Counted from the first letter of the stretch, positions 1-52,926 are shown. The stretch: DNA of 64,000 bases from Candidatus Uhrbacteria bacterium GW2011_GWE2_46_68 (GCA_001002765.1 LCMS01000010.1:123-64122); one strand, 5' to 3'. The notes: generated by a model not told the origin, from the sequence alone. Made by a program: numbers and translations.

Positions 1-220
1 GACCCCCTCATGCGATTCTTGAAAAAAATATGTGACCGGTTCGCGTAAGGTTCTTTGATCATCAAACCCGTAGGTCTTATCACCTTCTTTTGTTCCGCGA
101 AGAACAGCTGTGTGAAGTTTGCTGGGCATGCCTGACTCCTTTGGAAAGAACTAAAATGGATCGTCACTTCAAGAGTGTCCCCTTAAAGCAGCGGTGAAAA
201 AGGGACAGTCTTGCTGTCCC

Positions 221-1219
221 CTATACGTCGTGAGTAACCCCGTGACCATGATTGACACGGACTTGCGACCAAAATGTGCAATGATCTTGCGGCCGAACCC
301 TTACTTTTTCATCAAAAACCAATTGCGCAATCTCATTCTTTTGTCCGAAAAATTTCTCGAAATCCACAGAATCTGTCGAATTGAATACCGGAGCCACCTT
401 GTCGTACACGACCGTGGCACCCGGACATGAAGAAAATCCTTGCTCCTCCCAATTCCAGTGACGGGAAAGTCCCATCACACGATCTCCCACAAAAATCGCT
501 TCAGAAATAGCATGAGTCACAAGGAGAATGGTATGAGGTGCAGGTTTCCCCTGCCCCACAGCTTGAATATTTTCCTCGTAGAGAACAAGGAGCATACGCT
601 GCAAATCTTCACGCGTGGCCTCATCTAGTGCACCAAACGGCTCATCCAAAAGAAGGATTTGTGGTTTCATAATCAGGGCCTGGGCAATCGCCACGCGCTG
701 TCGCATACCTCCGGAAAGCTCGTGTGGATATTTGTGCACCGCATCCCCAAGACCAAATCGCACCAAGAGTTCTTCTGCATGTTTGAGATGTTCGCGCCGC
801 AAGCGTCGCCAAAATCCTGTCACTTGACCCCACATTCTCCTTGGAATGGTGGTCAGGTGAAGCTTGAGGCCAAACGCCACATTTTCCACGCTGGTCAAAA
901 ATGGATAGAGCCCGTAGGCCTGATACACAATGCCACGATCCGGACCTGGCCCAACAATCTCGGTCTCTTGCCCATCATAATTCACACTTACAATTCCTGA
1001 CGTAGAACGTGTGATGCCGGCGATGAGGTTTAGCAAAGATGTCTTTCCACACCCACTTGCACCAAGCACTCCAACGATTTGTCCGCGACCGATTGTGAAA
1101 TCCACCCCATGCAAAATATGCTGCTTCCTCACCTGAAACGATGCGTTTGAGACTGTAAGGATGGGCTTCACGAGACACCCCCCTTTGCGTACCAGGGGCA
1201 GAGCTTGCATTGAATCCAT
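221..1219 (-). CDS. ABC transporter ATP-binding protein, NitT/TauT (nitrate/sulfonate/bicarbonate) family
   Basis: Walker A GASGCGKTS, ABC signature LSGGMRQRVAIAQAL and Walker B LLLDEPFGALD in the 332-aa minus-strand ORF. It is immediately downstream of the permease and SBP genes on the same strand. Confidence 0.85.
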   Translation of the reverse strand: MDSMQALPLVRKGGCLVKPILTVSNASFQVRKQHILHGVDFTIGRGQIVGVLGASGCGKTSLLNLIAGITRSTSGIVSVNYDGQETEIVGPGPDRGIVYQAYGLYPFLTSVENVAFGLKLHLTTIPRRMWGQVTGFWRRLRREHLKHAEELLVRFGLGDAVHKYPHELSGGMRQRVAIAQALIMKPQILLLDEPFGALDEATREDLQRMLLVLYEENIQAVGQGKPAPHTILLVTHAISEAIFVGDRVMGLSRHWNWEEQGFSSCPGATVVYDKVAPVFNSTDSVDFEKFFGQKNEIAQLVFDEKVRVRPQDHCTFWSQVRVNHGHGVTHDV

Positions 1220-2016
1220 CGCATCCCCATGTCCATACCAAATCCAAACAGGGCAAGATAAGCAAGATAAGGGTAGACCACGTTCATGTTGAGCAATCGA
1301 GATTGCAGACGGATCCGATACCCGAATCCCACATCTCCCACCAAGACTTCAGCCGCAATGAGAAACACCATGGCCGGTCCGATCTGAAGCCTGATGGCAT
1401 CGAGAAGCTTGGGAAGAATCTGGGGGAACATGATACAAAAAATAATCTCAGTCGTACTCGCCCCAAGGGTACGGGCCTTATCAATACGCTCCTCAGCAAT
1501 ATCCTTAAGCCCCAAATAAATGGTCTGAGCCAAAGTGGGGATCACCCCAAAGGCAATGATCGCTCCGTACATCTTGAGTTCGGTTCCAAACAAAGTGAAG
1601 AACACTGCCATCATGGCTGTGGGAGGAATCTTTGCAAACAGAGAAAGGATCGGGAGGAAAAAGGCTTCCATCCATCGCCACACCCCCATGCTCATACCAA
1701 GAGCAAAGGCGATAAAGACTCCAATTCCAAGACCAAATCCCAGACGTGAAAGCGTGGCAAGCACATCTTCAACGATCCATCGGTCGCCTGTGCGCGGCTG
1801 GGCCGCAAAGATCTTGGAGATCCCCTCACTCATTTGCATCCATGTGGGAATCGTCGTGTCTGTGGGGTTGATCATATGCTGATGAATCGAAAGCCTGGTG
1901 TAGAGCGCAAGAAGAAGCAAGATGCTTGCGGTACCGATTACCCATGTTGCCTTACGGCTCATAGGCGCCCGAATACCTGTAAAGCATCGGAAAAGAAAAA
2001 AACGTTTTGTGGTCAC
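1168..2016 (-). CDS. ABC transporter permease (SsuC/TauC-like, BPD_transp_1)
   Basis: 282-aa ORF with multiple TM helices. It has an EAA-like loop (DIAEERIDKARTLGAS) typical of NitT/TauT permeases and overlaps the ATPase gene start by about 50 nt, as in an operon. Confidence 0.8.
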   Translation of the reverse strand: MTTKRFFLFRCFTGIRAPMSRKATWVIGTASILLLLALYTRLSIHQHMINPTDTTIPTWMQMSEGISKIFAAQPRTGDRWIVEDVLATLSRLGFGLGIGVFIAFALGMSMGVWRWMEAFFLPILSLFAKIPPTAMMAVFFTLFGTELKMYGAIIAFGVIPTLAQTIYLGLKDIAEERIDKARTLGASTTEIIFCIMFPQILPKLLDAIRLQIGPAMVFLIAAEVLVGDVGFGYRIRLQSRLLNMNVVYPYLAYLALFGFGMDMGMRWIQCKLCPWYAKGGVS

Positions 2017-2131
2017 AAGAACCTCCGGTTGGAAAGAACGGTTTTCCCTTAAGCCCTGAACACAAAATTAGTTCAAGTCTTAAGGAAAAGGGTTAGAGGT
2101 TTGCTCTAACCCGCGTGTAGGCGTGATTGGC

Positions 2132-3274
2132 CTACTTGTCAGGCGGAGGAATGATCGGGACATCCTGCGTGTAGACTCCCCCCCTCTGGACATCGAGCAT
2201 GTAGGAGGAATCGAAGACATAGGAAGGAGCAGTCGCCTCGGGTGTGCTCCACTGATGCCCATATCCGATCGTCGGAGACAAAGACACGATCTGGCGCCCC
2301 ACGCAGAACTGGCTCACAAGACCCATGGTCCCGGGGAGTCTACTTCCATCATACACGCCAAGCCCCAGGTCTGGGGTAGCGTAGAACTTGGTCTGCTTGA
2401 CCACGGTTTCCATGTCCTCAAGCCCCAGGTTGCTGAACTTGGAGCCGAGCGCAACGAGCATCTCGTTGTGACGGGCAGGGTCAGCCATGACCAGGTTGAA
2501 GGCGTAGTAGGCATCGATGACCGCACGAGCGAAGTTCTCACCGCCCGGCTTCTCGAGGCTTCCCCGCGCCATGACCACCATGTCGATCACCTCGCCGGGA
2601 ATCGTGGTGCTGTCGAAGAGCACATGCGTGTCAGCACGCCGCCGCAGGGTCTCGAGCACGAACGGATTCCAAACCATGATGGCTCGGATCTCCTGCTTCT
2701 GTTGAAGAGCCGTGGCGGCCGCGCCCGGATCCATGTTCGTGAAGGTGAAATCCGCAGGGTTGAGACCCTGGATGACCAGGTTGCGGGCGAACACGTACTC
2801 GGACACGCTCTTCGCCAGCCCGTACACAGGCACACCCTTCAGGTCATCCACGCTCTTGATCCCGCCATCCACGATCAGAGCGTCGGCCCCGAAGGATGTG
2901 GAAGTCGGAAGGATCGCGACCGTGGGTCGCGAGGCGGCGGGGATCAGGCTGTCCATGTTGGTGAGGGCTGCGGCATCGACCTCTCCGTTGCCATAGAGGT
3001 TGATGCAGGTGTCGTAGTCAGCTTCGCGCAGGACGATATCCACGCCCCAGCGCTCTTCGATCGGACCGACCTTGCCCTTGTCACCATCGATGATCCCGAT
3101 CTCGGAGGCAACCCCGAAGACGGACCAAGACGGGTACTCGCTCCAGGCGAGCGAGAAGCTCGGAAACTCGGCCGAAGGCTGTGAAGCCCCAGGATCGGTT
3201 GCCGGCGCATCCGCAGTCTTCGAAGAACAGGCGATGAGGAAACCCATGAGAGTCAGAGAGAACAGACGACGCAT
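2132..3274 (-). CDS. ABC transporter substrate-binding lipoprotein (NMT1/SsuA-like)
   Basis: The ORF track gives 2132..3427. The likely true start is the internal Met MRRLFSLTLMGFLIACSS (lipobox LIAC|S). The mature region resembles NMT1/THI5-type periplasmic binding proteins. It lies upstream of the permease and ATPase. Confidence 0.65.
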   Translation of the reverse strand: MRRLFSLTLMGFLIACSSKTADAPATDPGASQPSAEFPSFSLAWSEYPSWSVFGVASEIGIIDGDKGKVGPIEERWGVDIVLREADYDTCINLYGNGEVDAAALTNMDSLIPAASRPTVAILPTSTSFGADALIVDGGIKSVDDLKGVPVYGLAKSVSEYVFARNLVIQGLNPADFTFTNMDPGAAATALQQKQEIRAIMVWNPFVLETLRRRADTHVLFDSTTIPGEVIDMVVMARGSLEKPGGENFARAVIDAYYAFNLVMADPARHNEMLVALGSKFSNLGLEDMETVVKQTKFYATPDLGLGVYDGSRLPGTMGLVSQFCVGRQIVSLSPTIGYGHQWSTPEATAPSYVFDSSYMLDVQRGGVYTQDVPIIPPPDK

Positions 3275-3423
3275 GGAACACTCCTTCTGCGACGCGAAGC
3301 GACCAGGCTCCGCTTTGGTGAAATGAACGAAGGGCTTTGGAAAGCCCATGAGGGACGGTTGATCACCATAGTTGGAGGGTTTCCCCAACGCAGGTGGTAA
3401 AAAGAGGAAGAACGTAATCTCCC

Positions 3424-4170
3424 TCACGAAACGGTTTGCCTATACCCTTCTTGCCTGATGGCATGCGATCGCTGACTTTGATCCAATGTTTGCGCTCCGG
3501 CTTGCACACAGCGTTCCATTTCATCCACAATGCCATGCAATTCCATATCCACACTTTCCGCATGTTGAAGCGTGCGAATGCGAGTTAGAAGATCTCCAAG
3601 ACGCTCCACACTTGCCTGAACTTCTCCTATCACTTCTTCTCTGCGCGATTGGATCTTGCGGCGCACTTCGCGCTGCACAATCCCCTCGGCATCTTCAAAC
3701 AAATCATAGGAGATCTCGAGATAACGCACGGCATGGGCAAAAAGCTTATCAAACAAGGTAAGAAGATCTGCCCGCAGTTCATCATTGACACCCTTCCAAA
3801 GACGATCCTCATGCAAACGGCCGGCAATCGTTTCCAAATCACCCATGATGGTTTCGGTTCGATCATCACGATCGCGCGACAATTTTTCTTTGAGATCAAT
3901 CATGGCCTGCTTGCGCGCTTCTTGCACTTCATGTTCTTCTTCAGCCAACACGCCCTCGGTGATCTTTTCTCTGGCAAACAAGACGCGCAATGCCACGGCA
4001 GCTATGGCTCCGGTTGTACCCAGAATCCCTACCGCCAGCGGAATCGCCGGATTGGCAGCCACGAGAATCGCCATAAACCCCAGCATCCCGCCCGTAAACG
4101 GTGCCAGGGTCAGAGGATGACCCAAGAGGCGCTTGTACACCTCTCGCTTCCGTTGTTCGCGGGTTCGCAT
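3424..4170 (-). CDS. hypothetical membrane protein with N-terminal TM helices and long coiled-coil region
   Basis: 248-aa ORF. Hydrophobic segments (FTGGMLGFMAILVAANPAIPLAVGILGTTGAIAAVALRVLF) are followed by a charged heptad-like region rich in E/R/L. No recognisable domain. Confidence 0.45.
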   Translation of the reverse strand: MRTREQRKREVYKRLLGHPLTLAPFTGGMLGFMAILVAANPAIPLAVGILGTTGAIAAVALRVLFAREKITEGVLAEEEHEVQEARKQAMIDLKEKLSRDRDDRTETIMGDLETIAGRLHEDRLWKGVNDELRADLLTLFDKLFAHAVRYLEISYDLFEDAEGIVQREVRRKIQSRREEVIGEVQASVERLGDLLTRIRTLQHAESVDMELHGIVDEMERCVQAGAQTLDQSQRSHAIRQEGYRQTVS

Positions 4171-4179
4171 GGCTGCTCC

Positions 4180-5838
4180 TTAGTAGGACTTTTGGCCCAA
4201 AAGGAAACTGACGCTTTGGGACTCGCCACCCATGCCCACGGGAGGAGCCGCTTTGACGCGGATCCGGTGAGTGGGAATGCCTCGGGAGATGATCTGATCG
4301 GAAACGCTCTGTGCGCGGGCAAGCGCCAGCTTTTCGTTTTCAACCTGATCGCCGTCTGCACGCGCATGTCCCACCACGGTCAAGTAGAACGTGGGGTAGC
4401 TATGCAGTTGGCGCGCGATCTCATCCACGCTGCGCTGGCCCTGAAGGCTAAGCGCACTGGATGCCCGACGAAACTCGATCGCACAAATGCGCAAGTGCCC
4501 CACGGTCGAAAGCTTGTCCCAATCCTCGGCCGAAAGCTCGGGAAGAGTCTCGGCTACACGAACAGCTCCCAAATCTCCCTTGGGAACATCCACAACCCCA
4601 AGCTTGGAGCGAGGATGAAATCCTCCACTGTAGAGATCACGCAGCACGCCGTCGAAATAGAGTTCGCTTGGGTCTGCAACCGGCATGGCGGCAAACGCAC
4701 CTGAAGCTGTGAGCATACGCCCGATATTGAGAATCGTGTCGTGCAAGGTCGGAAGACCCGCAGACTCTCCGGTGGGAAGCAGACCAAACAGGGCATAGTT
4801 TTCCGTGGTGTTCCAAAAGCGAATTCCCTTGACCATGTTATGCGCTTCATCGCTTGAAATGATTTCTCCGGTCTTTTGACCGTCTTCGATGAGAAGAGCA
4901 GCAAACCCTTCATCCCCTCGCGACTGGTAGGAGTAGAGGGTTCGAAGATAAGCGGCAAGAACAACCTTTACCTGTTCAGGGTGATCGCGCAAAAATTCGC
5001 GACGGGCCAACAACACATCAACGATGATGCCGCGTACCTGGGAGGTATCCAGCAGACGATGCACGCCGGGAATCTTGAGCGACTTGGAAAGATAGGGCTC
5101 CCACAGAACAAACGCCTTGCGTTCGGTCGGCGAGGTGGCGCGCAAGAGATTGTAAATCCGCTCCTGGCTGGTCTCGGGGACAAACCAATCTTCGGGCATC
5201 TGGGGAAGGCTCATGTCTGCGCGCACCACTTGGACGAATGTCTCGCTGGGCGAGTCAGGCATGGCAACCACATGAGCGGTTGAGTGATCCAGGTCTTCGA
5301 TTGCGGCAAGTGCCTGCTTGTAGGCGACCATACCGTCTGCTCCGGCGCTTTCATCGATCGCCAGGACAATGGTTCCTGGGAACTGTTCGAGTTTGGCACC
5401 AGTCTTCAAGTTGGCATCAATCGTGATCACAGCCATATCCACATCACCCTTACGCAATGCCTTTTGACGTGCCGCGTAATCACCGCCGTCGTCAACGAGC
5501 TCGAGGGAAAAACCACTTTCGCGAAGTTCACCCGCAAACCCATCAGAACGGAAAACCGAATAGCCCTTGAAGCTGTCGGTGGCAATACGAATGGCATGCT
5601 CGTCAGATGACGTTTTCTTCACGCTTGTCTGTGCGATCAGATTGTCTTGCGCTGAAGGATGAATCACAAACTTCCACACGAGGATGCTCACAAAGGCAAG
5701 CAGAATGATGATCGCAGCACCTACAATGAGACGAAGTGAACGACGACCTTGAGAGGTAGGTTCCATGGAAGGACTCCTTGAGTGGGAAAGAAAGCCGGGT
5801 ATCAGCCGGCAAAAAAAGTTTCGGATTGAAAGGAACAT
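4180..5838 (-). CDS. OmpA C-terminal domain protein with N-terminal SBP-like (NMT1/SsuA-like) domain
   Basis: 552 aa. N-terminal TM helix. The central region is paralogous to the SBP at 2132..3274. The C-terminus (TVVGHARADGDQVENEKLALARAQSV...) matches the OmpA/MotB peptidoglycan-binding domain. The start may be the internal Met near 5766. Confidence 0.65.
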   Translation of the reverse strand: MFLSIRNFFCRLIPGFLSHSRSPSMEPTSQGRRSLRLIVGAAIIILLAFVSILVWKFVIHPSAQDNLIAQTSVKKTSSDEHAIRIATDSFKGYSVFRSDGFAGELRESGFSLELVDDGGDYAARQKALRKGDVDMAVITIDANLKTGAKLEQFPGTIVLAIDESAGADGMVAYKQALAAIEDLDHSTAHVVAMPDSPSETFVQVVRADMSLPQMPEDWFVPETSQERIYNLLRATSPTERKAFVLWEPYLSKSLKIPGVHRLLDTSQVRGIIVDVLLARREFLRDHPEQVKVVLAAYLRTLYSYQSRGDEGFAALLIEDGQKTGEIISSDEAHNMVKGIRFWNTTENYALFGLLPTGESAGLPTLHDTILNIGRMLTASGAFAAMPVADPSELYFDGVLRDLYSGGFHPRSKLGVVDVPKGDLGAVRVAETLPELSAEDWDKLSTVGHLRICAIEFRRASSALSLQGQRSVDEIARQLHSYPTFYLTVVGHARADGDQVENEKLALARAQSVSDQIISRGIPTHRIRVKAAPPVGMGGESQSVSFLLGQKSY

Positions 5839-5914
5839 TTCTTTAACCCGAGCTCACAGGAAAACCTATGGTCTCGGGAGAAAGGCCATCACCGTCTGTG
5901 ATGGCTTTGGGGGT

Positions 5915-6874
5915 CTAACCTTCGAGGATTATCCAGAGAAGGACGCCGAATACCCCGCAAATAACGATCATGAAAAAAAGAATCACCAGAAACGGAGTCT
6001 CCTCTTCTTTGACCGCTTCCGCACTCGGCTGGGATGGAGCGGCCGCCTGATCCACTTCCTCGGGAGGATCTTCCCCGATCGGATGGTTGCCTTGCACCGA
6101 AGTGCCAAGCCCCTTCACAACCGCCATGGCCACATCGGTTGAAAGTGGCGCGATGGTCAAGTAGGCATCAGTGGCGAGTTGCGGATCCCGCACAGAGGAA
6201 ACCTCAGCAAACACCTGACGCACGCGCTCTTCGAGTGCCTGCGCATTGTTTGCATTCTGATAGGTGTCGGCCTGGGTGGCCAAAGTGTGTTCAGTATTCA
6301 TGTCGATACCGACCGCGTGAATCAGGATCCCGCGCGAGCGAATCTCGGGCGTGAACCTTTCGACCATTTTTTCTTCTCGTGCCGGATTGGCCTGGCCATC
6401 GGTGAGCACCAAGAGGGTGTACATTCCCTCATTGTGTTGTGCCTCCCGCATGTACAGGAGTTCATCGGCAGCCGCCTTCATGAAGGTACCAAGCGGCGTG
6501 GATCTGTCCGGATTGATCGCCTGGAGAGATTGGAGAAGTGCAGCGTGATCCGAAGGTCCGAGCTTTTGGATCCATTCATACCGTTGTACACCGCTCATGA
6601 CGAGGACGCCGATATAGGTCTCCGGTGGTGCATTGCGGATCGCTTGCTCCAGGATGCGCTTGGCAGCGTCCATCCTGCTTTCTGATGCCTCTCCTCCCAT
6701 ACGCTCGTTCATGCTCCCCGAGGCATCGAGAAGCACGACAATGCAATCGTGGACACTCGTCTTTTCGATTGGCCGCGTGACCATCATTCCATCCATTTCC
6801 AAACCTGCGAAGGTCGGAAGACAGAAAAGCATCGAGACGAAAAGCAGACAAAGGATGCGACTGATGCCTCCCAT
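5915..6874 (-). CDS. von Willebrand factor type A (vWA) domain protein, secreted/membrane anchored
   Basis: Signal peptide MGGISRILCLLFVSMLFCLPTFAG. MIDAS motif in IVVLLDASGSMNE. C-terminal hydrophobic anchor (FLVILFFMIVICGVFGVLLWIIL). Confidence 0.7.
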   Translation of the reverse strand: MGGISRILCLLFVSMLFCLPTFAGLEMDGMMVTRPIEKTSVHDCIVVLLDASGSMNERMGGEASESRMDAAKRILEQAIRNAPPETYIGVLVMSGVQRYEWIQKLGPSDHAALLQSLQAINPDRSTPLGTFMKAAADELLYMREAQHNEGMYTLLVLTDGQANPAREEKMVERFTPEIRSRGILIHAVGIDMNTEHTLATQADTYQNANNAQALEERVRQVFAEVSSVRDPQLATDAYLTIAPLSTDVAMAVVKGLGTSVQGNHPIGEDPPEEVDQAAAPSQPSAEAVKEEETPFLVILFFMIVICGVFGVLLWIILEG

Positions 6875-6884
6875 GACTGCCTCC

Positions 6885-8792
6885 TTAGAAATCGAAGTCT
6901 GCGGTGGTGGATGCCTCGCCGGTCACACGCGTGAGAACGAACTCCACGCGGCGATTGGCTGCAGCTTCTTGCTCACTGCGTGGGCGGGCGACCATGGGCT
7001 CGCCAACACCTACACCATCAAAGGCGATCTGACTCTCGTCGATCCGCTTCCCTTTCTCTTCCGCAAACTGAAGGAAGGAGGAACGCACGGCCTCTGCCCG
7101 GTCACGGGTGAGCTTCTGTGCTTCCTGCAAGGTCTCACGAGGATTGGCGCCTCCGGTCTTGAACGTTCCGCTTGAAACAATCGCAATCACCTTGGCAATG
7201 GCCTCCAAAGCAAGCGGTTCACCATTGTAGAAGTACTGGTAGTCCGTCGGGCTCGTGCCTGTGCGCTTGAGCATACCGTTTTCGATCGCTGCATTGACGA
7301 AGTCACGCAGCACAGCCGTAGGATCCGCATGTCCGCGAATGACGAGGACCGCGCGGGGATACTTGTCGAGAAGCGTGAGAGCACGATCATACTGATCGCG
7401 ATACTGATCCTCCGAAAACGTCATCTGATTGGGCTCAAAGCTGATCGTGAAGGAAAGCATGCTGCGGCTGCCGAAACCTTCGGAGTCAAGGCCGCTGATC
7501 TCGGTGCGAACCGCTTCGGCATTGAACCTGGGCTTGGCCTCTACCGTGAGAGACTCAGACAAGGACTGCTTGAAGATCTCGTCTTGCCAGAAGGTATCCG
7601 GCACGCGGGCAAAGGCAATGGACTTGGTGGTCTGTCCCAAGCTCTCGGCCATCCTGTTTGCTTGGGTGGCGAGCGCATCGAATCCGTGTTCGTTTTTGGG
7701 ATCGATGAACGCCAGGTTGCCGGCATAGCCGACGAACTGGGCATCAAGGAGAAGTCCGTGAGCATCCTCGGAGGTGGGGAGCACACCCGTGCCCAGGATT
7801 TCCTGGGACAGGGCGAGGAGCCCCTGATACTCGGTCGAGCCGGAGACCTCATGCGCCTTGCGAAGCCTGATCACGGCTTCCACGGCTTCGAGGTAAGCGA
7901 CCGCAAAGGCGCGCACCTCATTGACATGGTCACGATAATAGGTCGGGTTGACCCAGTAGGTATCGGCGATCGTGAACACGCGCTGGGCCGTGGACACGAG
8001 AACACGGGCGTTCTTGACCGTGCCTTCAGCACCTGTGCCAACCACATCGAGACCGCCGGTCAAACCGATCATGTCGGGCGTGATCGCAAAGGCCGCGTCG
8101 GCCTGGCCGCTGCGCAGCGCTTCGATCGGACTTCCCTTGCCCGTCAGGGTATCGCACCACACGATCTGCACATCGGTCCACGACAGATGATCGTCGGTCA
8201 AAATCCCATAGAGCATGGACATGTGCGGGCCGCCGCGCTGGAGCGCGACGCGCTTACCCTTCAGATCCTTGATGGACTTGATCCCCTCTTGCACAACCAG
8301 ATGGTCGCCCTGCGACCAGGTCATCTGGAACGCGTAGAGGGGGCAGGTCGCGGGATCCGCGCACAGCCCCTGCTCGAAGATGGCATTGGTGACCATCTCA
8401 TAGGTGCCGCGCAGATAGGGTGTACGCCCTTCCTTGTAGGCCTGCGCCTGGAGCTTCATGTCATCGCCGGCAGCCAGCTGCAGGTTGAGGCCGTGCTTTG
8501 CAAAGATCGTGCCTTCGCGCGTGCGAAAACCGCCGTTGCCGTAGAAGGTGGCGTAGTCCCCACCCCAGGCGATGAAGCCGGTCTGGATGGGAGTGCCGTC
8601 AAACACCTTCCCTTGGAGGAAAGCGACGTCGCTTGGTGCGACTGCCTGCTCCTGTGAAGGCTTGATCTCGGGAGAAACGTTCTGAGAGGTTCCTGGCTGC
8701 GAGTTGTCGATCGGCATGCAGCCGACAAGGACGAAGATCAGGATCGCCAGAAAAAAACGGAGGTAGGAACAGGAAAAATAACGAGTGCACAT
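6885..8792 (-). CDS. OmpA C-terminal domain lipoprotein with SBP-like domain
   Basis: The ORF track gives 6885..8882. The probable start is the internal Met MCTRYFSC...LVGC (lipobox). The SBP-like middle region is paralogous to 2132..3274 and 4180..5838. The C-terminal OmpA-like domain reads RGHADPTAV...RDRAEAVRSSF...RRVEFVL. Confidence 0.65.
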   Translation of the reverse strand: MCTRYFSCSYLRFFLAILIFVLVGCMPIDNSQPGTSQNVSPEIKPSQEQAVAPSDVAFLQGKVFDGTPIQTGFIAWGGDYATFYGNGGFRTREGTIFAKHGLNLQLAAGDDMKLQAQAYKEGRTPYLRGTYEMVTNAIFEQGLCADPATCPLYAFQMTWSQGDHLVVQEGIKSIKDLKGKRVALQRGGPHMSMLYGILTDDHLSWTDVQIVWCDTLTGKGSPIEALRSGQADAAFAITPDMIGLTGGLDVVGTGAEGTVKNARVLVSTAQRVFTIADTYWVNPTYYRDHVNEVRAFAVAYLEAVEAVIRLRKAHEVSGSTEYQGLLALSQEILGTGVLPTSEDAHGLLLDAQFVGYAGNLAFIDPKNEHGFDALATQANRMAESLGQTTKSIAFARVPDTFWQDEIFKQSLSESLTVEAKPRFNAEAVRTEISGLDSEGFGSRSMLSFTISFEPNQMTFSEDQYRDQYDRALTLLDKYPRAVLVIRGHADPTAVLRDFVNAAIENGMLKRTGTSPTDYQYFYNGEPLALEAIAKVIAIVSSGTFKTGGANPRETLQEAQKLTRDRAEAVRSSFLQFAEEKGKRIDESQIAFDGVGVGEPMVARPRSEQEAAANRRVEFVLTRVTGEASTTADFDF

Positions 8793-9176
8793 GGCGCCTC
8801 CTTGGGAAACGGACGAAGTGTCCGATTGGTGAGTTGTTGACCCCTTGTAAGGAGCGTCAGAAGAGAGGTTTTTTGTCTCCAAACCCCTTCGTTCTGAACG
8901 CGAGACCTTAGGGTTTTTTGCCTAAAATGTCAACGATCTGTAGGCGAATCTTTAAGGAAAAAAACAAAAAAAGCCCATTTTTGGCCTCTTCTTGTTTATC
9001 CCTTTATCACACAGGATAAAACAGCAATGTTTGTAAAAAAATTCCACTTTGAATATTTGGTCTGATAATGTTCGTGATCTTTTAGGATAGCTACAGATGT
9101 GGTGTCAGGTCTGACACCAAAATACAAGAATACAAGGCAAAACAAAAAAGAACCTATAGGCTCTCTTTGAAAATTT

Positions 9177-9818
9177 CTATTCCCTTTTGGACGACCCTTG
9201 CTCTAACGTTTTATCTAAAAGGAACGTTTCGTCTCCTGCAAGTGAAGCAAGTGCGATGAAAACTGATCCGGACAACCTCACGGGAGTTTTAAGAATTTGT
9301 CCTAATGTCACGGCTGCCGCACGATGATGTCCTTCGACACAAACAATTTTTTTATGATCTTCACGCACAAGGCCTATCAACTCGGTCGGAGCAGGAAACT
9401 GCTTCATGAGTGACACAACGGCCGAATGATGAAGAAAAAAATCTTGCGGTTCGGGCAGGGCCAGCAACTCGGCAAACGATACTGTATTTTTCTCTTCTGT
9501 ATATTTCTGCCATCCGTTAAACGGCCCCATCAAAAGATTTGGCAAAAAAACTTGTGGATCTTTCACTTCGTATAATGCCCAAGCACGATCTTGAAGATGA
9601 AGTTGCAAAGCGGTGTGCACGCGCCAACTCTCCCAATTTGGCCACCCTTTGATCCTGGTCGCACACTCAACCCATGAAAAATTGTGTGCCTCGCGCTCTT
9701 TCCATCCTGCAAACACTTCTCCCCAACCAAGTGAACGGACAAAAGAAAGTTGTGATTCAAAATGGAACATAAGGAGGCTTCCAGTTCTTTTGAAAAATGG
9801 CCATGGAAAATAAGTCAT
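9177..9818 (-). CDS. hypothetical protein
   Basis: 213-aa ORF with local low-GC codon usage. No recognisable motifs. Confidence 0.4.
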   Translation of the reverse strand: MTYFPWPFFKRTGSLLMFHFESQLSFVRSLGWGEVFAGWKEREAHNFSWVECATRIKGWPNWESWRVHTALQLHLQDRAWALYEVKDPQVFLPNLLMGPFNGWQKYTEEKNTVSFAELLALPEPQDFFLHHSAVVSLMKQFPAPTELIGLVREDHKKIVCVEGHHRAAAVTLGQILKTPVRLSGSVFIALASLAGDETFLLDKTLEQGSSKRE

Positions 9819-10281
9819 GCCATCTTTTGTTTATGAATATTTCCTCTCTCATCCGCCCCTCCTCTACAAACCCCAAAAACTTATACAAACATATCGCTCG
9901 TTTATTTGCATCCACAACTCCCAAGTTCACCTTGTGTAATTTGAGTGTGCAAAATGCATAATCCAAAAGCCAAATCAATGCTTGCTTCCCATATCCTTTT
10001 CCGCGATACGCATCCTCTCCGATTGCGATAAAAAGTTCCGCGTTCCTGTTCATCTTCTGGATATTCGATAAGCCCATAAAACCAATGGGTTCATCGTCCA
10101 CACAAAAAGTAAAAAACTTTTTTTGTGAATTCTTTTTATAAGCCTCAAACCATTTTCTTTCTTTGGCAAGAGTTGTTTTCTCCCCAGAACAATCTCCAAT
10201 ATACTGACTGACCTGTGGGTTATTGAGCCACTTTACGCGAAGAGGAATATCAGATGATTTGTGTGGACGTACCTGCAACAT
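9757..10281 (-). CDS. GNAT family N-acetyltransferase (RimJ/RimL-like)
   Basis: Acetyl-CoA binding motif region (FIAIGEDAYRGKGYGKQALIWLLDYAF). The ORF track extends to 10353, but that would overlap the tRNA. The Met at MLQVRPH (ATG at 10279-10281 minus) is the more plausible start. Confidence 0.65.
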   Translation of the reverse strand: MLQVRPHKSSDIPLRVKWLNNPQVSQYIGDCSGEKTTLAKERKWFEAYKKNSQKKFFTFCVDDEPIGFMGLSNIQKMNRNAELFIAIGEDAYRGKGYGKQALIWLLDYAFCTLKLHKVNLGVVDANKRAICLYKFLGFVEEGRMREEIFINKRWHDLFSMAIFQKNWKPPYVPF

Positions 10282-10325
10282 AGGGTATCTTCTCACGGGT
10301 GCACACACCGTAAATTTTAGATAGT

Positions 10326-10401
10326 TGGTCGGGCTGGCGGGACTCGAACCCACGGCCTCTGCGTCCCGAACGCAGCGCTCTACCTGCTGAGCTACAGCCC
10401 G
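10326..10401 (-). tRNA. tRNA-Pro: tRNA-Pro (anticodon CGG)
   Basis: The reverse complement reads CGGGCTGTAGCTCAGCAGGTAGAGCGCTGCGTTCGGGACGCAGAGGCCGTGGGTTCGAGTCCCGCCAGCCCGACCA. It has a 7-bp acceptor stem with a C1-G72 pair (typical of bacterial tRNA-Pro), a D-loop AGCTCAGCAGGTAGAGC, an anticodon stem-loop CTGCG-TTCGGGA-CGCAG (anticodon CGG), a T-arm GGTTCGAGTCC and an encoded CCA. Confidence 0.8.
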
Positions 10402-10646
10402 ATATAAAAAATTTTATTTTCTCCGGATGCCCCCCATCATATCCGTCCTCCTTTCAAAAATCAACGGAACCGATCAAATATTGTATACTGAAAATCTATG
10501 GAAGACTCTCTTCATGAGATCATTCTTGATCTCGAAAAAACCTATAAGACCAAACGACTGATCAATCTTTTACTTGTCTGGATCGTAGGGTGCGCCCTTG
10601 TGGGAATACTCTCGTTTATCTTCTTTCCTCTCCTCCTTTTCTCTCA

Positions 10647-11618
10647 TCAATAATCCAAACCTTCCCGCGCTTTCACTCCAGAATAAAAATAATGTTTTTT
10701 CATCTGCACATCAGAGACAAGATGTGCGACATCTAATAACGCGGTAGGGGCATGACGTCCGGTTAAAATAAGCTCGACTCCTTCGGGCTTATTTTTTATA
10801 AGCGATAGCACTTCCTCCATGGTTATCAACCCGAGCGCTATACAGCTATTAATCTCATCCAGTAATACCACATCACACTCGGACGCAAAAAAATCTTGTG
10901 CGGCCCTCAACCCTCTCTGCGCCTCTTCGTGATCTTTTGGAGTTAAAGAAAAATCAAATCGCCCTGTGGTCGCATCCACCCGATCGCGACCCGTCACCAC
11001 ATAGGAAATTCCCAAACGATCGAGAGAAAAACGTTCGCTGTAATGTGATCCTCCTTTATCAAAATACACGACCCCTGCTTTTTTCCCCGCCCCATAGGCA
11101 CGAATAATTTCTCCAAGCGCCGCCGTAGTCTTTCCTTTCCCTTCACCTGTAAAAATTTGCACAAGCCCATATCCTTGTCGCCCGGCGATACGATCATCTG
11201 CTTTTGGGATTCCGCTCATGCGACGATACACCTTCAAAACCTCTCGCACATTTTCTTTGATCTCCTCGGGATCCGCGTCTTTAGGATCATGCCAAAGATA
11301 TTGACCATGTTCCTCGCTTAACAAAACTTCAACGTCAAGAACCTTGATCGCATAAAAAACTCCAAACACGCAATGAGTTTCTTCATTTCTCTGAAAAGAC
11401 CAAAGATCAGTATGAATGATCTGCGCGGCCTGCGGATCTGTCACGAGACCGGTCTCCTCTGCAATCTCACGAGCCAATGTTTCCAAAGGGTGATCCCCCT
11501 CCTCCATTCTTCCTCCGGGCAACTCCCATTGATGCGCACCCTTATTTTCCATCAACAGCAAAATCTTTCCCAAAGGATTCACTAAAAGAACTTTTTGTGC
11601 GATAAACGCTTGGATCAT
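10647..11618 (-). CDS. cobO: NUDIX hydrolase domain fused to cob(I)yrinic acid a,c-diamide / cob(I)alamin adenosyltransferase (CobO/BtuR-type)
   Basis: N-terminal NUDIX box GGRMEEGDHPLETLAREIAEETGL. C-terminal P-loop GEGKGKTTAALGEIIRA plus the rest of the CobA/CobO-family adenosyltransferase fold (VVLLDEINSCIALG...TGRHAP). Confidence 0.7.
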   Translation of the reverse strand: MIQAFIAQKVLLVNPLGKILLLMENKGAHQWELPGGRMEEGDHPLETLAREIAEETGLVTDPQAAQIIHTDLWSFQRNEETHCVFGVFYAIKVLDVEVLLSEEHGQYLWHDPKDADPEEIKENVREVLKVYRRMSGIPKADDRIAGRQGYGLVQIFTGEGKGKTTAALGEIIRAYGAGKKAGVVYFDKGGSHYSERFSLDRLGISYVVTGRDRVDATTGRFDFSLTPKDHEEAQRGLRAAQDFFASECDVVLLDEINSCIALGLITMEEVLSLIKNKPEGVELILTGRHAPTALLDVAHLVSDVQMKKHYFYSGVKAREGLDY

Positions 11619-11622
11619 AGCG

Positions 11623-12375
11623 TTATTTTTTTACCGCATCCACAAGAATAAAATTTGAAGTGAATAGATATTCTTTATCTCCTAACGTCACCTTTTCCGG
11701 TGGAACGAATGCAACGGTAAAATTGGTTCGCTCATCTTTGAAAACTTCCTTCAAAAAACTCAAAGCTTCTTCCTGTGTATAATTCGGCTCGTTTTCCACA
11801 ATCCAAAGACTACCATCAGGATAAGTACGTTTAATGTCTGCTGCGAAATCCATAATGATACGCCCTCCAGATTTCAAAACACGTCTCATTTCCAAAAAAA
11901 TGATTTGAAACACCTGCCTTGGAAAAAGATGCATCGTACCCACAGAAAAGACTCCAACAAATTCGCCGTCCTCAAAAGGAAAAGGCTCAACCACATTCAT
12001 GGTCTTTGTGATGAGTTTGTTTTTGAGATGGTCAGGTGTGACACGAACCAGTTTTTGTAAAGCGCCTTCGTCAATATCCACAGCCACAACCTCATCAGCT
12101 TTTTCCAATAACACATGATTAAATCTCCCATCGCCGGCGCAGAGATTCAACCATTTGCCTCCCGTCTCCATGTGGTTTAGTAAATTTGTCGTAGCCAAAT
12201 CTTCCGTCCCCCAAACAGAAGAATGAGAAAGGTCGGCATACTCAATCTCATCAGTGTAGATATATTTCTTTTCATCAGCTTTCATAAACGAGAAAACCCC
12301 GAGAAATACTTCGGGGTTTTGTTTTTTTAAGTAAAAATTTAGCTGCACCCGCTTGTTGCTCCACAATTCAGACAT
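11623..12375 (-). CDS. class I SAM-dependent methyltransferase
   Basis: SAM-binding motif I (LNLCAGDGRFNHVLLEKADEVVAVDIDE). 250 aa. Located between the cobO-like gene and nrdJ on the same strand. Confidence 0.65.
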   Translation of the reverse strand: MSELWSNKRVQLNFYLKKQNPEVFLGVFSFMKADEKKYIYTDEIEYADLSHSSVWGTEDLATTNLLNHMETGGKWLNLCAGDGRFNHVLLEKADEVVAVDIDEGALQKLVRVTPDHLKNKLITKTMNVVEPFPFEDGEFVGVFSVGTMHLFPRQVFQIIFLEMRRVLKSGGRIIMDFAADIKRTYPDGSLWIVENEPNYTQEEALSFLKEVFKDERTNFTVAFVPPEKVTLGDKEYLFTSNFILVDAVKK

Positions 12376-15300
12376 TTATAGCATGAACCGTTTCGCACCA
12401 TGATTGATCCGCAGGTCATACAGGCAGGAGCATCGGATTGATTATCAAACGTGGAGGTAAGACCGGTTGTTGTTTTCTCCGACTGCGCAAATAACGTGGA
12501 TTGTGCTTCAGGACTTTCTTCCACCGCCACGGTCACGACCTGTGGCTTGTTCACGGGCTCAGCCATGATATTACTGTCAGTCGGGTCTTCGGTGACATGC
12601 ACGCCCACGGTCATCTGCACATCCCGAGGTAAAAATTTCATGGCCAACCAACGAAACAAATAATCAATAATGGATTTGGCGATTCGAATTTGTGGGTTAT
12701 TCGTATAGCCTGATGGCTCAAAACGCATATGCACAAATTTATTGACCAACACTTCCAGCGGCACCCCATATTGCAATCCGATCGAAACCGATGTGGCAAA
12801 ACAATCCATCAACCCTCGAATCACTGACCCTTGCTTGGACATCGTGATAAAAATTTCCCCCGGCGTCCCATCATCATAGAGCCCCACATTGATATAGCCC
12901 TCATGACTACCCACACTAAACTTATGCGTGATCGAACGGCGCTCATCGGGCAAGCGGCGACGGCGCGGTTTATCCACAATGGATGGGGTAACTTTTGGCA
13001 CTACGGAAATCACGGATGCCGTGGTTTTTTCCGCCTCTCTAATCCCCTCTTCTTTTTGTCGATCCTCGTTTACCTTTTTGGAATCTTTTTCTTTTGTCGT
13101 CGTCAACGCTTGTTGACGTTTAGATCCATCACGATATACCGCAATCGCTTTGATCCCCATTTTCCATCCTTCCATATACACTTTTCCGATATCCTCCGGA
13201 GTAGAGTCGTGCGGCAAATTGACGGTCTTGGAAATGGCTCCGGAAATAAACGGTTGTACAGCCGCCATCATGCGCAAATGCCCCATATAGTGAATTGTGC
13301 GCTTTCCGTTGACGGGTTTGAACGCGCAATCAAAGACGGACAAATGCTCTTCTTTGAGATGTGGTGCACCTTCGATCGTATCATTGGTATCAATGTAAGT
13401 CGTGATATCGCGTTGCTGTTCCTCGGTATATCCCAATCGCTGTAAAGCTTCTTTCACACAACGATTCACAATTTTCATCATGCCACCACCCACAAGCCAC
13501 TTATATTTAACAAGCGCAATGTCGGGCTCCACTCCGGTCGTATCGCAGTCCATCAAAAAAGCAATAGTGCCGGTGGGAGCCAAAACGGAAATTTGCGCAT
13601 TGCGCGATCCATGCACTTCTCCATCCTCGACAACTTTATTCCAAATGAGACAAGATTCTTTGAGCAAAGCGGGATCAATCCCCTTCTCTTGCAAATGACA
13701 CGCTTCGTCGCGATGCATGCGCATCACTTGCAAAAACGAATCGCGATTCTTTTTATATCCCGCAAACGCTCCGCGCTTTTCCGCAATCTTTGTCGATTGA
13801 TGATAACAATATCCGCTCAACAGTGCTGTGATCGCTGCGGCAAGATTGCGACCTTCTTGCGAATCATAAGCATATCCGTGACTCATCAAAAGCGCACCGA
13901 GATTTGCATACCCAATCCCCAAGGAACGATAATCATGACTGTTGCGTTCAATCGCAGGGGTTGGATAACTTGAATTTCCCACAATGATTTCCATGGCTGT
14001 AATAATAATGCGGCTCACATGCTCAAATGCCTTTACATCAAACTCCATGCGACCGTTCACCTCTTTGCGCAACTTCATGAGATTCAGCGAGGCGAGATTA
14101 CACGCTGTGTCGTTAAGGAACATATATTCACTGCAAGGATTGCTCGCATGAATGCGATCGGTTCCTTTGCAGGTATGCCACGTATTGATGGTTGTATCGT
14201 ATTGAATCCCGGGGTCTCCGCACTGCCAAGCCGCATCACACATTTTTTTCATGAGATCTTTAGCACGATAACGCAAACTTTCTTTCCCTCCCACGACTTC
14301 ATGAGTGACCCATTCGCGATCATCTTCCACTGCGCGCATAAACTCATCGGTCACACGTACAGAGTGATTGGCATTTTGAAAAAACACGGAACTGTAGGCG
14401 TTGCCATCAATCGAACCGTCATACCCGGCATCCATAAGCGCCCAAGCTTTTTTTTCTTCAATCGCTTTTGCCGTAATAAAATCTTCAATATCAGGATGAT
14501 CGATATTCAAAATAACCATCTTGGCCGCACGACGCGTTTTACCACCGCTTTTTATCACCCCGGCAAAAGCGTCAAACCCACGCATAAAAGAAACCGGACC
14601 TGAAGCGCGCCCGTTGCTCCCGCGCAAATATTCTTGTTTGGAACGTAAAATGGAAAGATTCACTCCAGCCCCAGATCCTCCTTTAAACAACATGCCTTCG
14701 GTCACACACAAATTCAAAATGGACCGCATGTCGTCTTGCACCGCATTGATAAAACACGCAGAACATTGCGGATACGAATTCACACCCACATTAAACCAAA
14801 CCGGAGAATTAAATGCGGCCATTTGATTGGTAAGAATATACAAAAGTTCGTGCTCATACACGTCCGCATCTTCCTTGGTTTGAAAATATCCGTCACAACG
14901 CCCCCATTTTGCAATCGTATTGGCAACACGGGTCATGAGTTGTTTGACCGAAGATTCGCGTTCCGACTCCCCCACTTTTCCACGAAAATATTTTGACACC
15001 ACGATATTGGTGGCAGACTGCGACCACGATGCCGGAACCTCCACGCCTTTTTGTTCAAACACGGCCTCTCCTTTTTCGTTTGTGATGCGCGCATCGCGAA
15101 TATCCCAAACCATTTCATCAAAAGGATGCACTCCTTGGCGGGTAAAAAATCTGGAAATCACAAGCCCATCTCCATACACCGGCTCACGTGTACCAATGGC
15201 CGCCAGACTCTCGTACATGGCATAGTGTCTGGCCACATGAGGAAGGTTGTGATCAATAAAAGTAAGAGTAATCACGTCGCGGATATCGGAAAAACACGGT

Positions 15301-15563
15301 GTCATATGCCCGTTAAACCGTCGCACCAGTCGACTCACGATTTGTTCCACCATTTCTTTGACACTGCGCTCGTCTTCAATACCCGCCTCCTTCATGGTTG
15401 CACGAATGGAACGGGAAAGTTTCTGGAGCTCAAAAGGCTCCTCGCGTCCGTCGCGTTTACGAATCATTTTGACAGATGTCAGATAATCCCAAACGGACTC
15501 AGTGACATCCCCGGCTTGGGTTTGCACTTCGGTCTCTGCGGAACGAAACGTTGTGTCAGACAT
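12339..15563 (-). CDS. nrdJ: adenosylcobalamin-dependent ribonucleoside-diphosphate/triphosphate reductase (class II RNR, NrdJ) with N-terminal ATP-cone
   Basis: 1111-aa ORF (track end 15674; the probable start is MSDTTFRS near 15563). ATP-cone (VKMIRKRDGREEPFELQKL), RNR catalytic barrel motifs (NPCSEY, thiyl-radical loop) and a C-terminal Zn-ribbon CMTCGS...CYKCLNCG. The large size and lack of a class I beta-subunit partner fit class II. Confidence 0.9.
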   Translation of the reverse strand: MSDTTFRSAETEVQTQAGDVTESVWDYLTSVKMIRKRDGREEPFELQKLSRSIRATMKEAGIEDERSVKEMVEQIVSRLVRRFNGHMTPCFSDIRDVITLTFIDHNLPHVARHYAMYESLAAIGTREPVYGDGLVISRFFTRQGVHPFDEMVWDIRDARITNEKGEAVFEQKGVEVPASWSQSATNIVVSKYFRGKVGESERESSVKQLMTRVANTIAKWGRCDGYFQTKEDADVYEHELLYILTNQMAAFNSPVWFNVGVNSYPQCSACFINAVQDDMRSILNLCVTEGMLFKGGSGAGVNLSILRSKQEYLRGSNGRASGPVSFMRGFDAFAGVIKSGGKTRRAAKMVILNIDHPDIEDFITAKAIEEKKAWALMDAGYDGSIDGNAYSSVFFQNANHSVRVTDEFMRAVEDDREWVTHEVVGGKESLRYRAKDLMKKMCDAAWQCGDPGIQYDTTINTWHTCKGTDRIHASNPCSEYMFLNDTACNLASLNLMKLRKEVNGRMEFDVKAFEHVSRIIITAMEIIVGNSSYPTPAIERNSHDYRSLGIGYANLGALLMSHGYAYDSQEGRNLAAAITALLSGYCYHQSTKIAEKRGAFAGYKKNRDSFLQVMRMHRDEACHLQEKGIDPALLKESCLIWNKVVEDGEVHGSRNAQISVLAPTGTIAFLMDCDTTGVEPDIALVKYKWLVGGGMMKIVNRCVKEALQRLGYTEEQQRDITTYIDTNDTIEGAPHLKEEHLSVFDCAFKPVNGKRTIHYMGHLRMMAAVQPFISGAISKTVNLPHDSTPEDIGKVYMEGWKMGIKAIAVYRDGSKRQQALTTTKEKDSKKVNEDRQKEEGIREAEKTTASVISVVPKVTPSIVDKPRRRRLPDERRSITHKFSVGSHEGYINVGLYDDGTPGEIFITMSKQGSVIRGLMDCFATSVSIGLQYGVPLEVLVNKFVHMRFEPSGYTNNPQIRIAKSIIDYLFRWLAMKFLPRDVQMTVGVHVTEDPTDSNIMAEPVNKPQVVTVAVEESPEAQSTLFAQSEKTTTGLTSTFDNQSDAPACMTCGSIMVRNGSCYKCLNCGATSGCS

Positions 15564-15864
15564 ACGGCGAGTACGAAAGAAAGAGTAAGAGATAAGAAAA
15601 GATCTTCGTGATTCTTCTTTTATCTCCCTCCCTTTGGAAGGTTGAAAAACTCCCCCTAAGACACGAAAAGACAATCCCCACGGATTATCTTTTTATGTCA
15701 TGAAGAAAGAAGGACGTCTTTCTTCTTTTCCTCCATCGAAGCGACAAACCACTCGTCCGTACGTTCTACCATATGTTGTGGTCTGCTCTTATTTTAGACC
15801 ACGACATATGGGGTGTCAAAAGAAAAACTTATCCACAGAATCGCACAAAAAACGACGCTCAAAA

Positions 15865-16512
15865 TCAAAACGGCATGGTGAGATTGATAACAGGTTGAGG
15901 GGCTATTTTTAAGGCAAAATCCACGGGAATCGCCTTTCTTTCTCCGCTCCTGTCCTCAAACGCGAGGGCTTGATACTTAAGTCCATACTCATACACCTCT
16001 TTGGTAACCCGCACATCGTCCAAACAGTATTGTTTGATCTTGTCCACTTCTCCCTGTTTCCACCACTCGATTGCCTGTAGGCCATGCCCTGTTTTTCGAT
16101 GCCCCACACTTGCGGCGGCTACATCATCCAGCTTGAGCCGAAACCCCAAGGCCTTTTGGATTTCCTCCAAAATATCGAGTTGTGGAAGCTTGAGGAGATC
16201 GCCTGCATAATAGTTATTCATGATAGGCAAATCAAAACTGCGAGAGTTATACCCGATCACTCGATCACAACGCTCCAACCGCGCCCAAAGGCGAGACAAT
16301 TCATGTTCCTCAAAGACCTCGAACGTATTGGTCTCGTAAAAATAAACGCCGACAACCGAGATTTTAAACTTTGTGTAGTCATTCTCGACGTCGGCAAAAC
16401 TATTTTGCGTTTCAATGTCCAATACCACTTCGTGCTTCATACGCGGCACAGTATAACGCAAGGAAGCGATTGGATCAAAATCAAATCTCCACAACAAAAC
16501 GCGAACCCGCAT
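15865..16512 (-). CDS. DEDD-family (DnaQ-like / RNase H-fold) 3'-5' exonuclease
   Basis: Exo I LDIETQN, Exo II GYNSRSFDLP and Exo III YCLDDV motifs in the 215-aa ORF. Confidence 0.6.
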   Translation of the reverse strand: MRVRVLLWRFDFDPIASLRYTVPRMKHEVVLDIETQNSFADVENDYTKFKISVVGVYFYETNTFEVFEEHELSRLWARLERCDRVIGYNSRSFDLPIMNNYYAGDLLKLPQLDILEEIQKALGFRLKLDDVAAASVGHRKTGHGLQAIEWWKQGEVDKIKQYCLDDVRVTKEVYEYGLKYQALAFEDRSGERKAIPVDFALKIAPQPVINLTMPF

Positions 16513-34876: not shown

Positions 34877-34879
34877 ATA

Positions 34880-38380: not shown

Positions 38381-38390
38381 GAAAAAAATT

Positions 38391-39650: not shown

Positions 39651-39653
39651 AAG

Positions 39654-40946: not shown

Positions 40947-40949
40947 AGG

Positions 40950-52924: not shown

Positions 52925-52926
52925 AC

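Follow-up and report, generated by a model that had tools for sequence, protein, structure and literature searches.

Some corrinoid adenosyltransferases are embedded in an operon where they serve one B12 enzyme, as PduO does in pdu and EutT does in eut. A fusion of MeaB to CobA (P0272) follows the same logic, in which the activator or re-activator of a coenzyme is encoded together with its client. Here we describe a related arrangement in a stretch of 64,000 nucleotides from Candidatus Uhrbacteria bacterium GW2011_GWE2_46_68 (GCA_001002765.1 LCMS01000010.1:123-64122; the whole stretch is referred to below as the window). In this arrangement a CobA-type ATP:co(I)rrinoid adenosyltransferase, carrying a NUDIX domain at its N terminus, is encoded on the same strand as nrdJ, the gene for an adenosylcobalamin-dependent class II ribonucleotide reductase (RNR). 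The module is a variation on the known theme of co-encoded activator and client, and it is conserved in its lineage. It differs from the pdu and eut systems in its client, a class II RNR, in the CobA type of its adenosyltransferase, in its apparent control by NrdR and in its NUDIX appendage. In addition, the host is a genome-reduced symbiont without visible B12 synthesis.

The individual parts of the module can also be compared with described proteins and operators. CobA of Salmonella enterica (PF02572; structures 1G5R, 1G5T, 1G64 and 4HUT) has the P-loop GxGKGKTT, the family-invariant residues, the fold and a similar segment before the P-loop in common with the window protein. The two are about 32-36% identical, and the window protein has an additional N-terminal NUDIX domain of 135 residues. 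In contrast to Salmonella CobA, the window enzyme is encoded beside its client enzyme and not in a cob operon. MutT-like NUDIX enzymes (M. mazei 3GRN, BdRppH 3EES, NudG 2RRK, NUDT2 3U53 and NudI) have the same fold and an intact Nudix box, and the motif LSxEHxxxxW of the window domain is common to 3GRN and NUDT2. The window domain differs from these enzymes in being fused to CobA and in scoring under every curated subfamily cut-off. In NrdR boxes, the highly conserved positions are C4, A6, A8, T9, T11 and G13, and the linker between boxes is predominantly 15-16 bp long, with exceptions of 14 bp and 26-27 bp (PMC13584703). The window resembles the operators of the NrdR regulon in having two partially palindromic 16-bp boxes that carry these six positions and overlap an nrd promoter. 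It differs in the length of the linker, which is taken up below, and in that the regulated unit probably includes cobA.

We believe that the locus is probably a ribonucleotide-reduction module of an Uhrbacteria-like bacterium of the Candidate Phyla Radiation (CPR), made up of an NrdR-type promoter, NrdJ, a CobA activator, an accessory NUDIX domain and a passenger methyltransferase. An initial annotation had placed three open reading frames (ORFs) between 10647 and 15674, and all three are present there, co-directional on the minus strand. It had also described NrdJ as lying downstream of the adenosyltransferase. On the minus strand, transcription runs from nrdJ through the methyltransferase gene to the NUDIX::CobA fusion gene, and NrdJ is thus upstream. 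An 86.8-kb metagenome contig in ENA contains an identical stretch, and Candidatus Uhrbacteria and other Patescibacteria supply the closest named homologues.

Linkage of nrdJ and cobA and its control

The association of cobA with nrdJ extends well beyond the window. We collected 80 loci from species-representative genomes with a generic CobA pattern, among the matches listed (this set was dominated by the P-loop pattern and held two further fused loci), and 80 more from metagenomes with a clade-specific C-terminal CobA pattern; several loci were obtained by exact protein look-up. Linkage was counted among those fetched loci that had at least 4.5 kb of sequence upstream of CobA. Of the 42 loci with a CPR-type CobA, 30 had nrdJ upstream and in the same orientation (12/15 loci fused to NUDIX and 18/27 unfused loci), compared with 1/47 loci with other CobA proteins. 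This single locus (L007) belongs to an unclassified small-genome metagenome-assembled genome. The pairing was also found in a Nanoarchaeota locus (L063), and in some loci (L006, L101) the start of cobA is no more than a few bases from the nrdJ stop codon. By comparison across loci, these counts argue strongly that CobA works for NrdJ in these organisms, and they support the salvage-to-use coupling of the two proteins that the initial annotation had suggested. A description of nrdJ-cobA linkage in CPR or DPANN organisms was not found in the literature that we searched.

The reductase was identified by its matches in NCBIfam (NF005122, 1426 bits against a cut-off of 859; TIGR02504, 591 bits against 400). 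Its mechanical ORF extends from 12339 to 15674 (1111 amino acids), and Pfam recognizes an N-terminal ATP-cone followed by the Ribonuc_red_2_N, barrel and TSCPD domains. The translation ends in a Cys-rich tail, ...CMTCGSIMVRNGSCYKCLNCGATSGCS. The ATG at 15563 (M38 of the ORF) is likely to be the start codon, because the gene call in the identical contig and the alignments with homologues agree on it; this gives nrdJ the coordinates 12339-15563 (minus strand). Pfam searches of 59 further ORFs of the 64-kb window, including the large ones, detected neither a class I nor a class III RNR, and no cob, cbi or B12-transport genes. CPR bacteria as a group lack cofactor biosynthesis.

A sigma-70-like promoter, TTGACA-17-TAAAAT, lies at 15791-15819 (minus strand), 220 nt upstream of the nrdJ start. 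It matches the consensus at 11 of 12 positions and is the best site in the region. The number of sigma-70-like sites in the region does not exceed that in shuffled sequences, and this counts against the weight of the promoter match when taken alone. The promoter call gains weight because it overlaps conserved NrdR-type boxes. These are two 16-bp partial palindromes, both read on the minus strand. Box 1, ACCCCATATGTCGTGG (15799-15814), is inside the promoter spacer, and box 2, CCACAACATATGGTAG (15766-15781), starts 33 nt after box 1, just 3' of the -10 element. All six key positions are present in each box. Among 26 distinct nrdJ upstream regions from related loci, 20 contain such a pair, with 32-33 nt between the starts of the two boxes; the number expected from shuffles is 0.02. 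With Rfam, no known RNA, cobalamin riboswitches included, was detected near nrdJ. The leader of about 220 nt between the promoter and the nrdJ start (15564-15790, minus strand) has a hairpin at 15725-15702 and gave no Rfam match. The same leader contains a strong Shine-Dalgarno-like sequence, AAGGGAGGGAG, with no start codon behind it.

Directly 3' of the nrdJ stop codon is a terminator-like hairpin, AAAACCCCGA...UCGGGGUUUU, followed by the U-rich tail CUCGUUU (12293-12320, minus strand; -19.3 kcal/mol, z = -3.6). It ends 8 nt before the ATG of the methyltransferase gene. This hairpin and its junction recur in the relative L087, and hairpins of a similar kind come after nrdJ in L099, L004 and L128. 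No promoter-like site was found on the minus strand between the 3' part of nrdJ and the start of the fusion gene, and only 4 nt separate the methyltransferase gene from the fusion gene. The initial annotation had treated the three genes as one operon. The short gap and the lack of an internal promoter-like site favour this assignment; the hairpin after nrdJ adds a caveat to it. The hairpin is probably an internal attenuator. The simplest reading is that the methyltransferase and the fusion are expressed through reduced read-through past it, because the downstream genes have no promoter-like site after the hairpin. In the relative L085, a GC-rich, hairpin-forming insert of about 200 nt (6772-6968) lies between nrdJ and the methyltransferase gene; in the window there is a single hairpin only.

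The gene between nrdJ and the fusion encodes a class I S-adenosylmethionine-dependent methyltransferase of the small-molecule type (Pfam Methyltransf_25/11). The initial annotation had identified it as such at 11623-12375 and counted it as part of the unit; the identity stands, but synteny does not bear out its membership of the conserved module. Its start is likely the ATG at 12285 (M31), because some 60 homologues are roughly 220 amino acids long, and with this start the gene (11623-12285, minus strand) does not overlap nrdJ. The family comprises 66 clusters, all from Patescibacteria and about 220 amino acids long. Only the window and its nearest relatives, L085 and L086, have this gene in the position between nrdJ and cobA, and orthologues elsewhere are found in unrelated gene contexts. 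Foldseek searches with an AlphaFold2 (AF2) model and profile searches returned generic small-molecule methyltransferases only. The match to CpaM, a corrinoid-protein-associated family of NCBIfam, reached 25.7 bits against a cut-off of 180 and was no better than the other generic methyltransferase matches. For these reasons, a functional role of the methyltransferase in the unit was rejected. The gene is best treated as a lineage-specific insertion and a passenger.

The NUDIX::CobA fusion protein

The fusion is encoded by a single uninterrupted ORF of 323 codons (10647-11618, minus strand). Its C-terminal part, residues 151-323 (10647-11168 including the stop codon), matches CobA_CobO_BtuR (PF02572) with 163.6 bits (gathering threshold 25.7) over positions 3-172 of the 172 positions of the profile. 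The P-loop reads GEGKGKTT. All residues that are invariant over 157 CobA sequences of the fetched loci (84 CPR-type and 73 other) are kept in the window protein; in Salmonella numbering, these are the P-loop, R51, K66, E73, D127-E128, N130, T159-G160-R161, K181-H182, G187, G193 and D195. The AF2 model of the fusion has a predicted local distance difference test score of 91.3 and a predicted template-modelling score (pTM) of 0.72. In Foldseek, the best PDB matches of the CobA part are 1g64, 4hut and 1g5r (E 3e-15 to 2e-12), with template-modelling scores of 0.76-0.80 on the Salmonella target. Thus, the earlier assignment of this domain to CobO holds at the level of the family.

The two domains are joined by the linker PKADDRIAGRQGYG (residues 136-150; 11169-11213, minus strand). 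The linker motif LDERIKGRQGYGL is also the sequence with which unfused CPR-type CobA proteins begin, and in the alignment with Salmonella CobA it falls on residues 15-29. The linker is thus CobA's own N-terminal segment, and a complete CobA unit therefore stands behind the NUDIX domain. In Salmonella CobA (1G64), this segment reportedly caps the active site of the neighbouring subunit. Other N-terminal fusions to CobA were found in a library clustered at 50% identity, namely a pyruvate-kinase barrel (P0193), MeaB (P0272) and CbiX (P0221). The pyruvate-kinase fusion is of the CPR type and 55% identical in its CobA part; it may be a gene-call artefact. If real, it would place an ATP-making domain at the position of the NUDIX domain.

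The initial annotation had called the NUDIX fusion unusual. A database search for other fusions showed that it is common within Uhrbacteria: both PF00293 and PF02572 are present in 117 of the 120 best clusters at 90% identity. In the 50%-identity library, the fused architecture is represented by two full-length representatives and fragments. The fusion family is therefore populous but phylogenetically narrow, and it belongs mainly to Uhrbacteria. Homologues at about 50% identity align across residues 1-323. When the window protein is compared with L085, the nearest fused relative, the ratio of non-synonymous to synonymous substitution rates (dN/dS) is 0.20 in the NUDIX domain and 0.10 in the CobA domain. 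An assembly or frameshift artefact was rejected on these three grounds, namely the cluster counts, the full-length alignments and dN/dS. Some gene callers begin the window protein at M38 (P0001, 286 amino acids); the full-length start is favoured because K9, G17 and L20 are conserved. A literature search did not find a description of a NUDIX-CobA fusion, and no relatives were found in viral contigs.

The NUDIX domain of the fusion (residues 1-135; 11214-11618, minus strand) has a MutT-like fold and matches PF00293 at residues 10-128 with 55.9 bits (gathering threshold 21.1). The Nudix box, G36-x5-(E/D)42-x7-R50-E51-I52-x-E54-E55-x-G57-L58, is invariant or nearly so in 82 sequences, and so is a motif 3' of it, S101-x-E103-H104...W109. 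At position 42 the window copy has D, and at least 90% of the relatives have E. From these alignments and the dN/dS value, the Nudix box is conserved and the NUDIX domain is under purifying selection. The domain scores below the curated NCBIfam cut-offs for the MutT, NudB, NudI, NudG, RppH and YtkD subfamilies (at best 31.6 bits, against cut-offs of 95-245). By sequence and fold, the nearest solved proteins are pyrophosphohydrolases of (deoxy)nucleoside triphosphates, (d)NTPs, or of NpnN compounds (3GRN, BdRppH, NudG, NUDT2 and NudI).

Gene order provides a second view of this domain. In four loci (L143, L144, L153 and L168), nrdJ and cobA flank a stand-alone gene of the same NUDIX subfamily; this subfamily occurs both as a separate and as a fused copy in L002 and L164, and a different MutT-like NUDIX subfamily fills the same slot in L142 and L145. 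A search with a standalone NUDIX gave eight matches, of which two contexts were informative. In L169 (3840-8206), the order is an exonuclease gene, nrdJ, the standalone NUDIX gene, a 69-aa coiled-coil-like ORF and a gene for an NTPase_I-T protein (a YjjX-type ITP/XTP-ase); cobA was not found in L169 before the end of the contig. The close relative L087, whose NrdJ and CobA are 91% and 83% identical to those of the window, has neither the NUDIX domain nor the methyltransferase. In L087 (9585-10225), the hairpin and the junction CTCGTTTATG run directly into an unfused CobA, MTKDHQKDVIPKADERIIGRQGYG... The difference between L087 and the window is a clean deletion or insertion polymorphism that spans the methyltransferase gene and the NUDIX domain. 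We propose that the NUDIX domain is an intact, accessory MutT-like nucleoside-polyphosphate pyrophosphohydrolase of the nrdJ neighbourhood; it appears to be accessory because it is a separate gene in some loci and has been lost in L087. Two further NUDIX genes, one of them weakly NudE-like, and a gene of the HIT family are found in the window at 26408-27061, 32671-33357 and 33204-33608 (minus strand). The genome thus carries several nucleotide hydrolases beside the fused NUDIX domain.

A model for the module and its alternatives

Our model addresses the supply of coenzyme to NrdJ, the expression of the module and the role of the NUDIX domain. NrdJ needs adenosylcobalamin, and the last gene of the unit is predicted to encode a CobA-type adenosyltransferase. 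We propose that CobA moves the adenosyl group of ATP onto a reduced, scavenged corrinoid, releasing triphosphate. It would in this way make the coenzyme of NrdJ and also re-make it after cofactor damage. The promoter with its NrdR-type boxes would drive nrdJ, and transcription would presumably follow the balance of ATP and dATP. The hairpin after nrdJ probably lets only a fraction of the transcripts through, which would yield much NrdJ and little CobA. In this model, the NUDIX domain, catalytically intact, started out as a separate gene between nrdJ and cobA and came to stand in front of a complete CobA; at least one close relative does without it. As a best guess, its substrates would be drawn from the (d)NTP pool fed by the reductase, and it would serve either in house-cleaning or in the conversion of dNTPs to dNMPs. 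The fusion would then reflect co-expression and not the adenosylation step. We suggest that fusion to CobA is the sole fusion to a neighbour that spares the C-terminal tail of NrdJ, which we take to need a free end.

Several observations weigh against this model. Among CPR-type loci, 12/42 show no linkage to nrdJ, and the fused loci L083, L084 and L092 have no nrdJ within 10 kb. A linker of 17 bp separates the boxes in the window, and one of 16-17 bp does so in the 20 related loci, as opposed to the usual 15-16 bp. No gene for NrdR was found in the 64-kb window or the fetched loci, either with Pfam or with tblastn and an E. coli NrdR query. The hairpin after nrdJ could terminate transcription completely, and the downstream genes would then need an unseen promoter. 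The exclusion of a second RNR and of B12 synthesis covers the 64-kb window only. Finally, the CobA domain scores below the equivalog and subfamily cut-offs of NCBIfam (TIGR00708, 128.5 against 167.75; NF004637, 148.9 against 185), and the loop that bears F91 and W93 in Salmonella CobA is replaced by a longer, clade-invariant loop with the conserved insertion GRDRIDPVTGRFDFS. In the MAFFT alignment, I214 takes the position of F91, and F221 and F223 fall in the clade-specific insertion; this loop varies among other CobA proteins too. In Salmonella CobA (4HUT), the aromatic pair F91/W93 reportedly pushes out the lower ligand, which leaves four-coordinate cob(II)alamin. Because this loop has been rebuilt, we treat adenosyltransferase activity as predicted only.

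The low scores and the rebuilt corrin-side loop could also mean that the CobA-like domain is not an adenosyltransferase at all, and is instead a divergent P-loop NTPase that either acts as a chaperone loading or repairing the NrdJ cofactor or has an unrelated role. The invariant residues specific to the clade would fit such a change of function, as would the existence of CobA fusions to the chaperone MeaB. We consider this very unlikely, as every residue that is invariant in the 157 CobA sequences is kept, the fold is that of CobA, and the corrin-binding loop is variable among bona fide CobA proteins as well. Furthermore, an adenosylcobalamin enzyme in such a genome needs an adenosyltransferase, and the CobA domain is the only candidate seen. 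It is scarcely credible that the adjacency of the genes is incidental and that the methyltransferase belongs functionally to the unit, for example with a corrinoid or nucleotide substrate. CPR genomes are gene-dense, the methyltransferase gene nearly abuts the fusion gene, and there is the weak CpaM match. Yet an incidental adjacency is largely refuted by the synteny statistics, with 30/42 linked loci against 1/47, and the methyltransferase is confined to this position in the nearest relatives, has orthologues in unrelated contexts, and matches CpaM far below the cut-off.

The role of the NUDIX domain allows for a different explanation, in which it takes part in adenosylation. The initial annotation had suggested that it may hydrolyse a nucleotide by-product or regulate the reaction. 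It might hydrolyse the triphosphate held in the CobA P-loop, or clear dATP or non-adenine NTPs competing at the ATP site, and so make a self-clearing or self-proofreading adenosyltransferase. To our knowledge, NUDIX enzymes that hydrolyse nucleoside-free triphosphate are rare, and this counts against such a role, although NUDIX relatives do act on polyphosphate chains. In favour of such a role, CobA sets free inorganic triphosphate and requires the 2'-OH group of ATP, according to Fonseca et al. (2002). The NUDIX domain is fused to CobA directly before the segment said to cap the neighbouring active site, the fusion is kept where cobA is unlinked from nrdJ, and the pTM of 0.72 hints that the two domains have a definite relative placement. 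The persistence of the fusion is trivial, however, since a fused gene moves as one. In addition, the NUDIX domain is absent in about two-thirds of the CPR-type CobA loci (27/42), L087 has lost it and kept CobA beside nrdJ, a different NUDIX subfamily can fill the same slot, and in L169 the NUDIX gene follows nrdJ together with a second house-cleaning NTPase and without an adjacent cobA. Thus, a part in adenosylation is possible but unlikely. A more specific version, in which the NUDIX domain is a dedicated partner that sits on the N-terminal lid of CobA and hydrolyses trapped triphosphate or reductase-made dATP at the nucleotide site of the partner subunit, seems to us quite unlikely. If it were true, the synthesis of coenzyme B12 would be irreversible and insulated from the dNTP pool. 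We know of no built-in product-clearing step in any corrinoid adenosyltransferase.

Our preferred model, with an accessory NUDIX domain in a ribonucleotide-reduction module, suggests a reliance on the corrinoids of other organisms for the synthesis of DNA precursors, both in many ultra-small CPR bacteria and in at least some DPANN archaea. Such hosts would retain just the final activation of the coenzyme, encoded beside the reductase and, it appears, controlled by the repressor of the reductase itself. The locus thus points to a vitamin dependence that is open to test by co-culture or B12 amendment. The NUDIX::CobA family is well populated, with at least 117 sequence clusters, and it offers a cheap target for studying how nucleotide hydrolysis may be coupled to coenzyme B12 synthesis or to control of the dNTP pool.

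Neighbouring genes and other features of the window

A gene for an RNase-H-fold, PolB-exo-like exonuclease (15865-16512, minus strand) is a conserved neighbour in the lineage and immediately precedes nrdJ, both in the window and in most of the related CPR loci. This gene lies beyond the promoter with the NrdR-type boxes, and it gave no NCBIfam match. On the other side of the module, a 51-aa ORF with a hydrophobic C-terminal half (10498-10653, plus strand) is convergent with the fusion gene and overlaps it by 7 nt at the stop codon. This ORF is kept in the relatives L085 and L087. Rfam identified a tRNA-Pro (CGG) at 10326-10401 (minus strand), which has its own promoter-like site at 10464-10436. 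A mechanical ORF for a GNAT protein (9757-10353) overlaps this tRNA gene, so that the true GNAT start must be further downstream.

Positions 1-9000 of the window have a GC content of about 55%, compared with about 45% elsewhere in the window, and may be acquired DNA. This region codes for an ABC transporter (ATPase and permease), for a binding protein that is NMT1-like and ends in an OmpA-like tail, and for VWA and OmpA proteins. The junction with the rest of the window is not a chimera, because the independent assembly L001 shows it too. Further along, seven consecutive ORFs at 33626-42299 (minus strand; 416, 121, 489, 560, 419, 430 and 449 amino acids) gave no Pfam matches at E <= 1e-5. At 50867-55008 (minus strand), two paralogous genes lie side by side, each encoding a subtilase (S8) domain and FG-GAP repeats.

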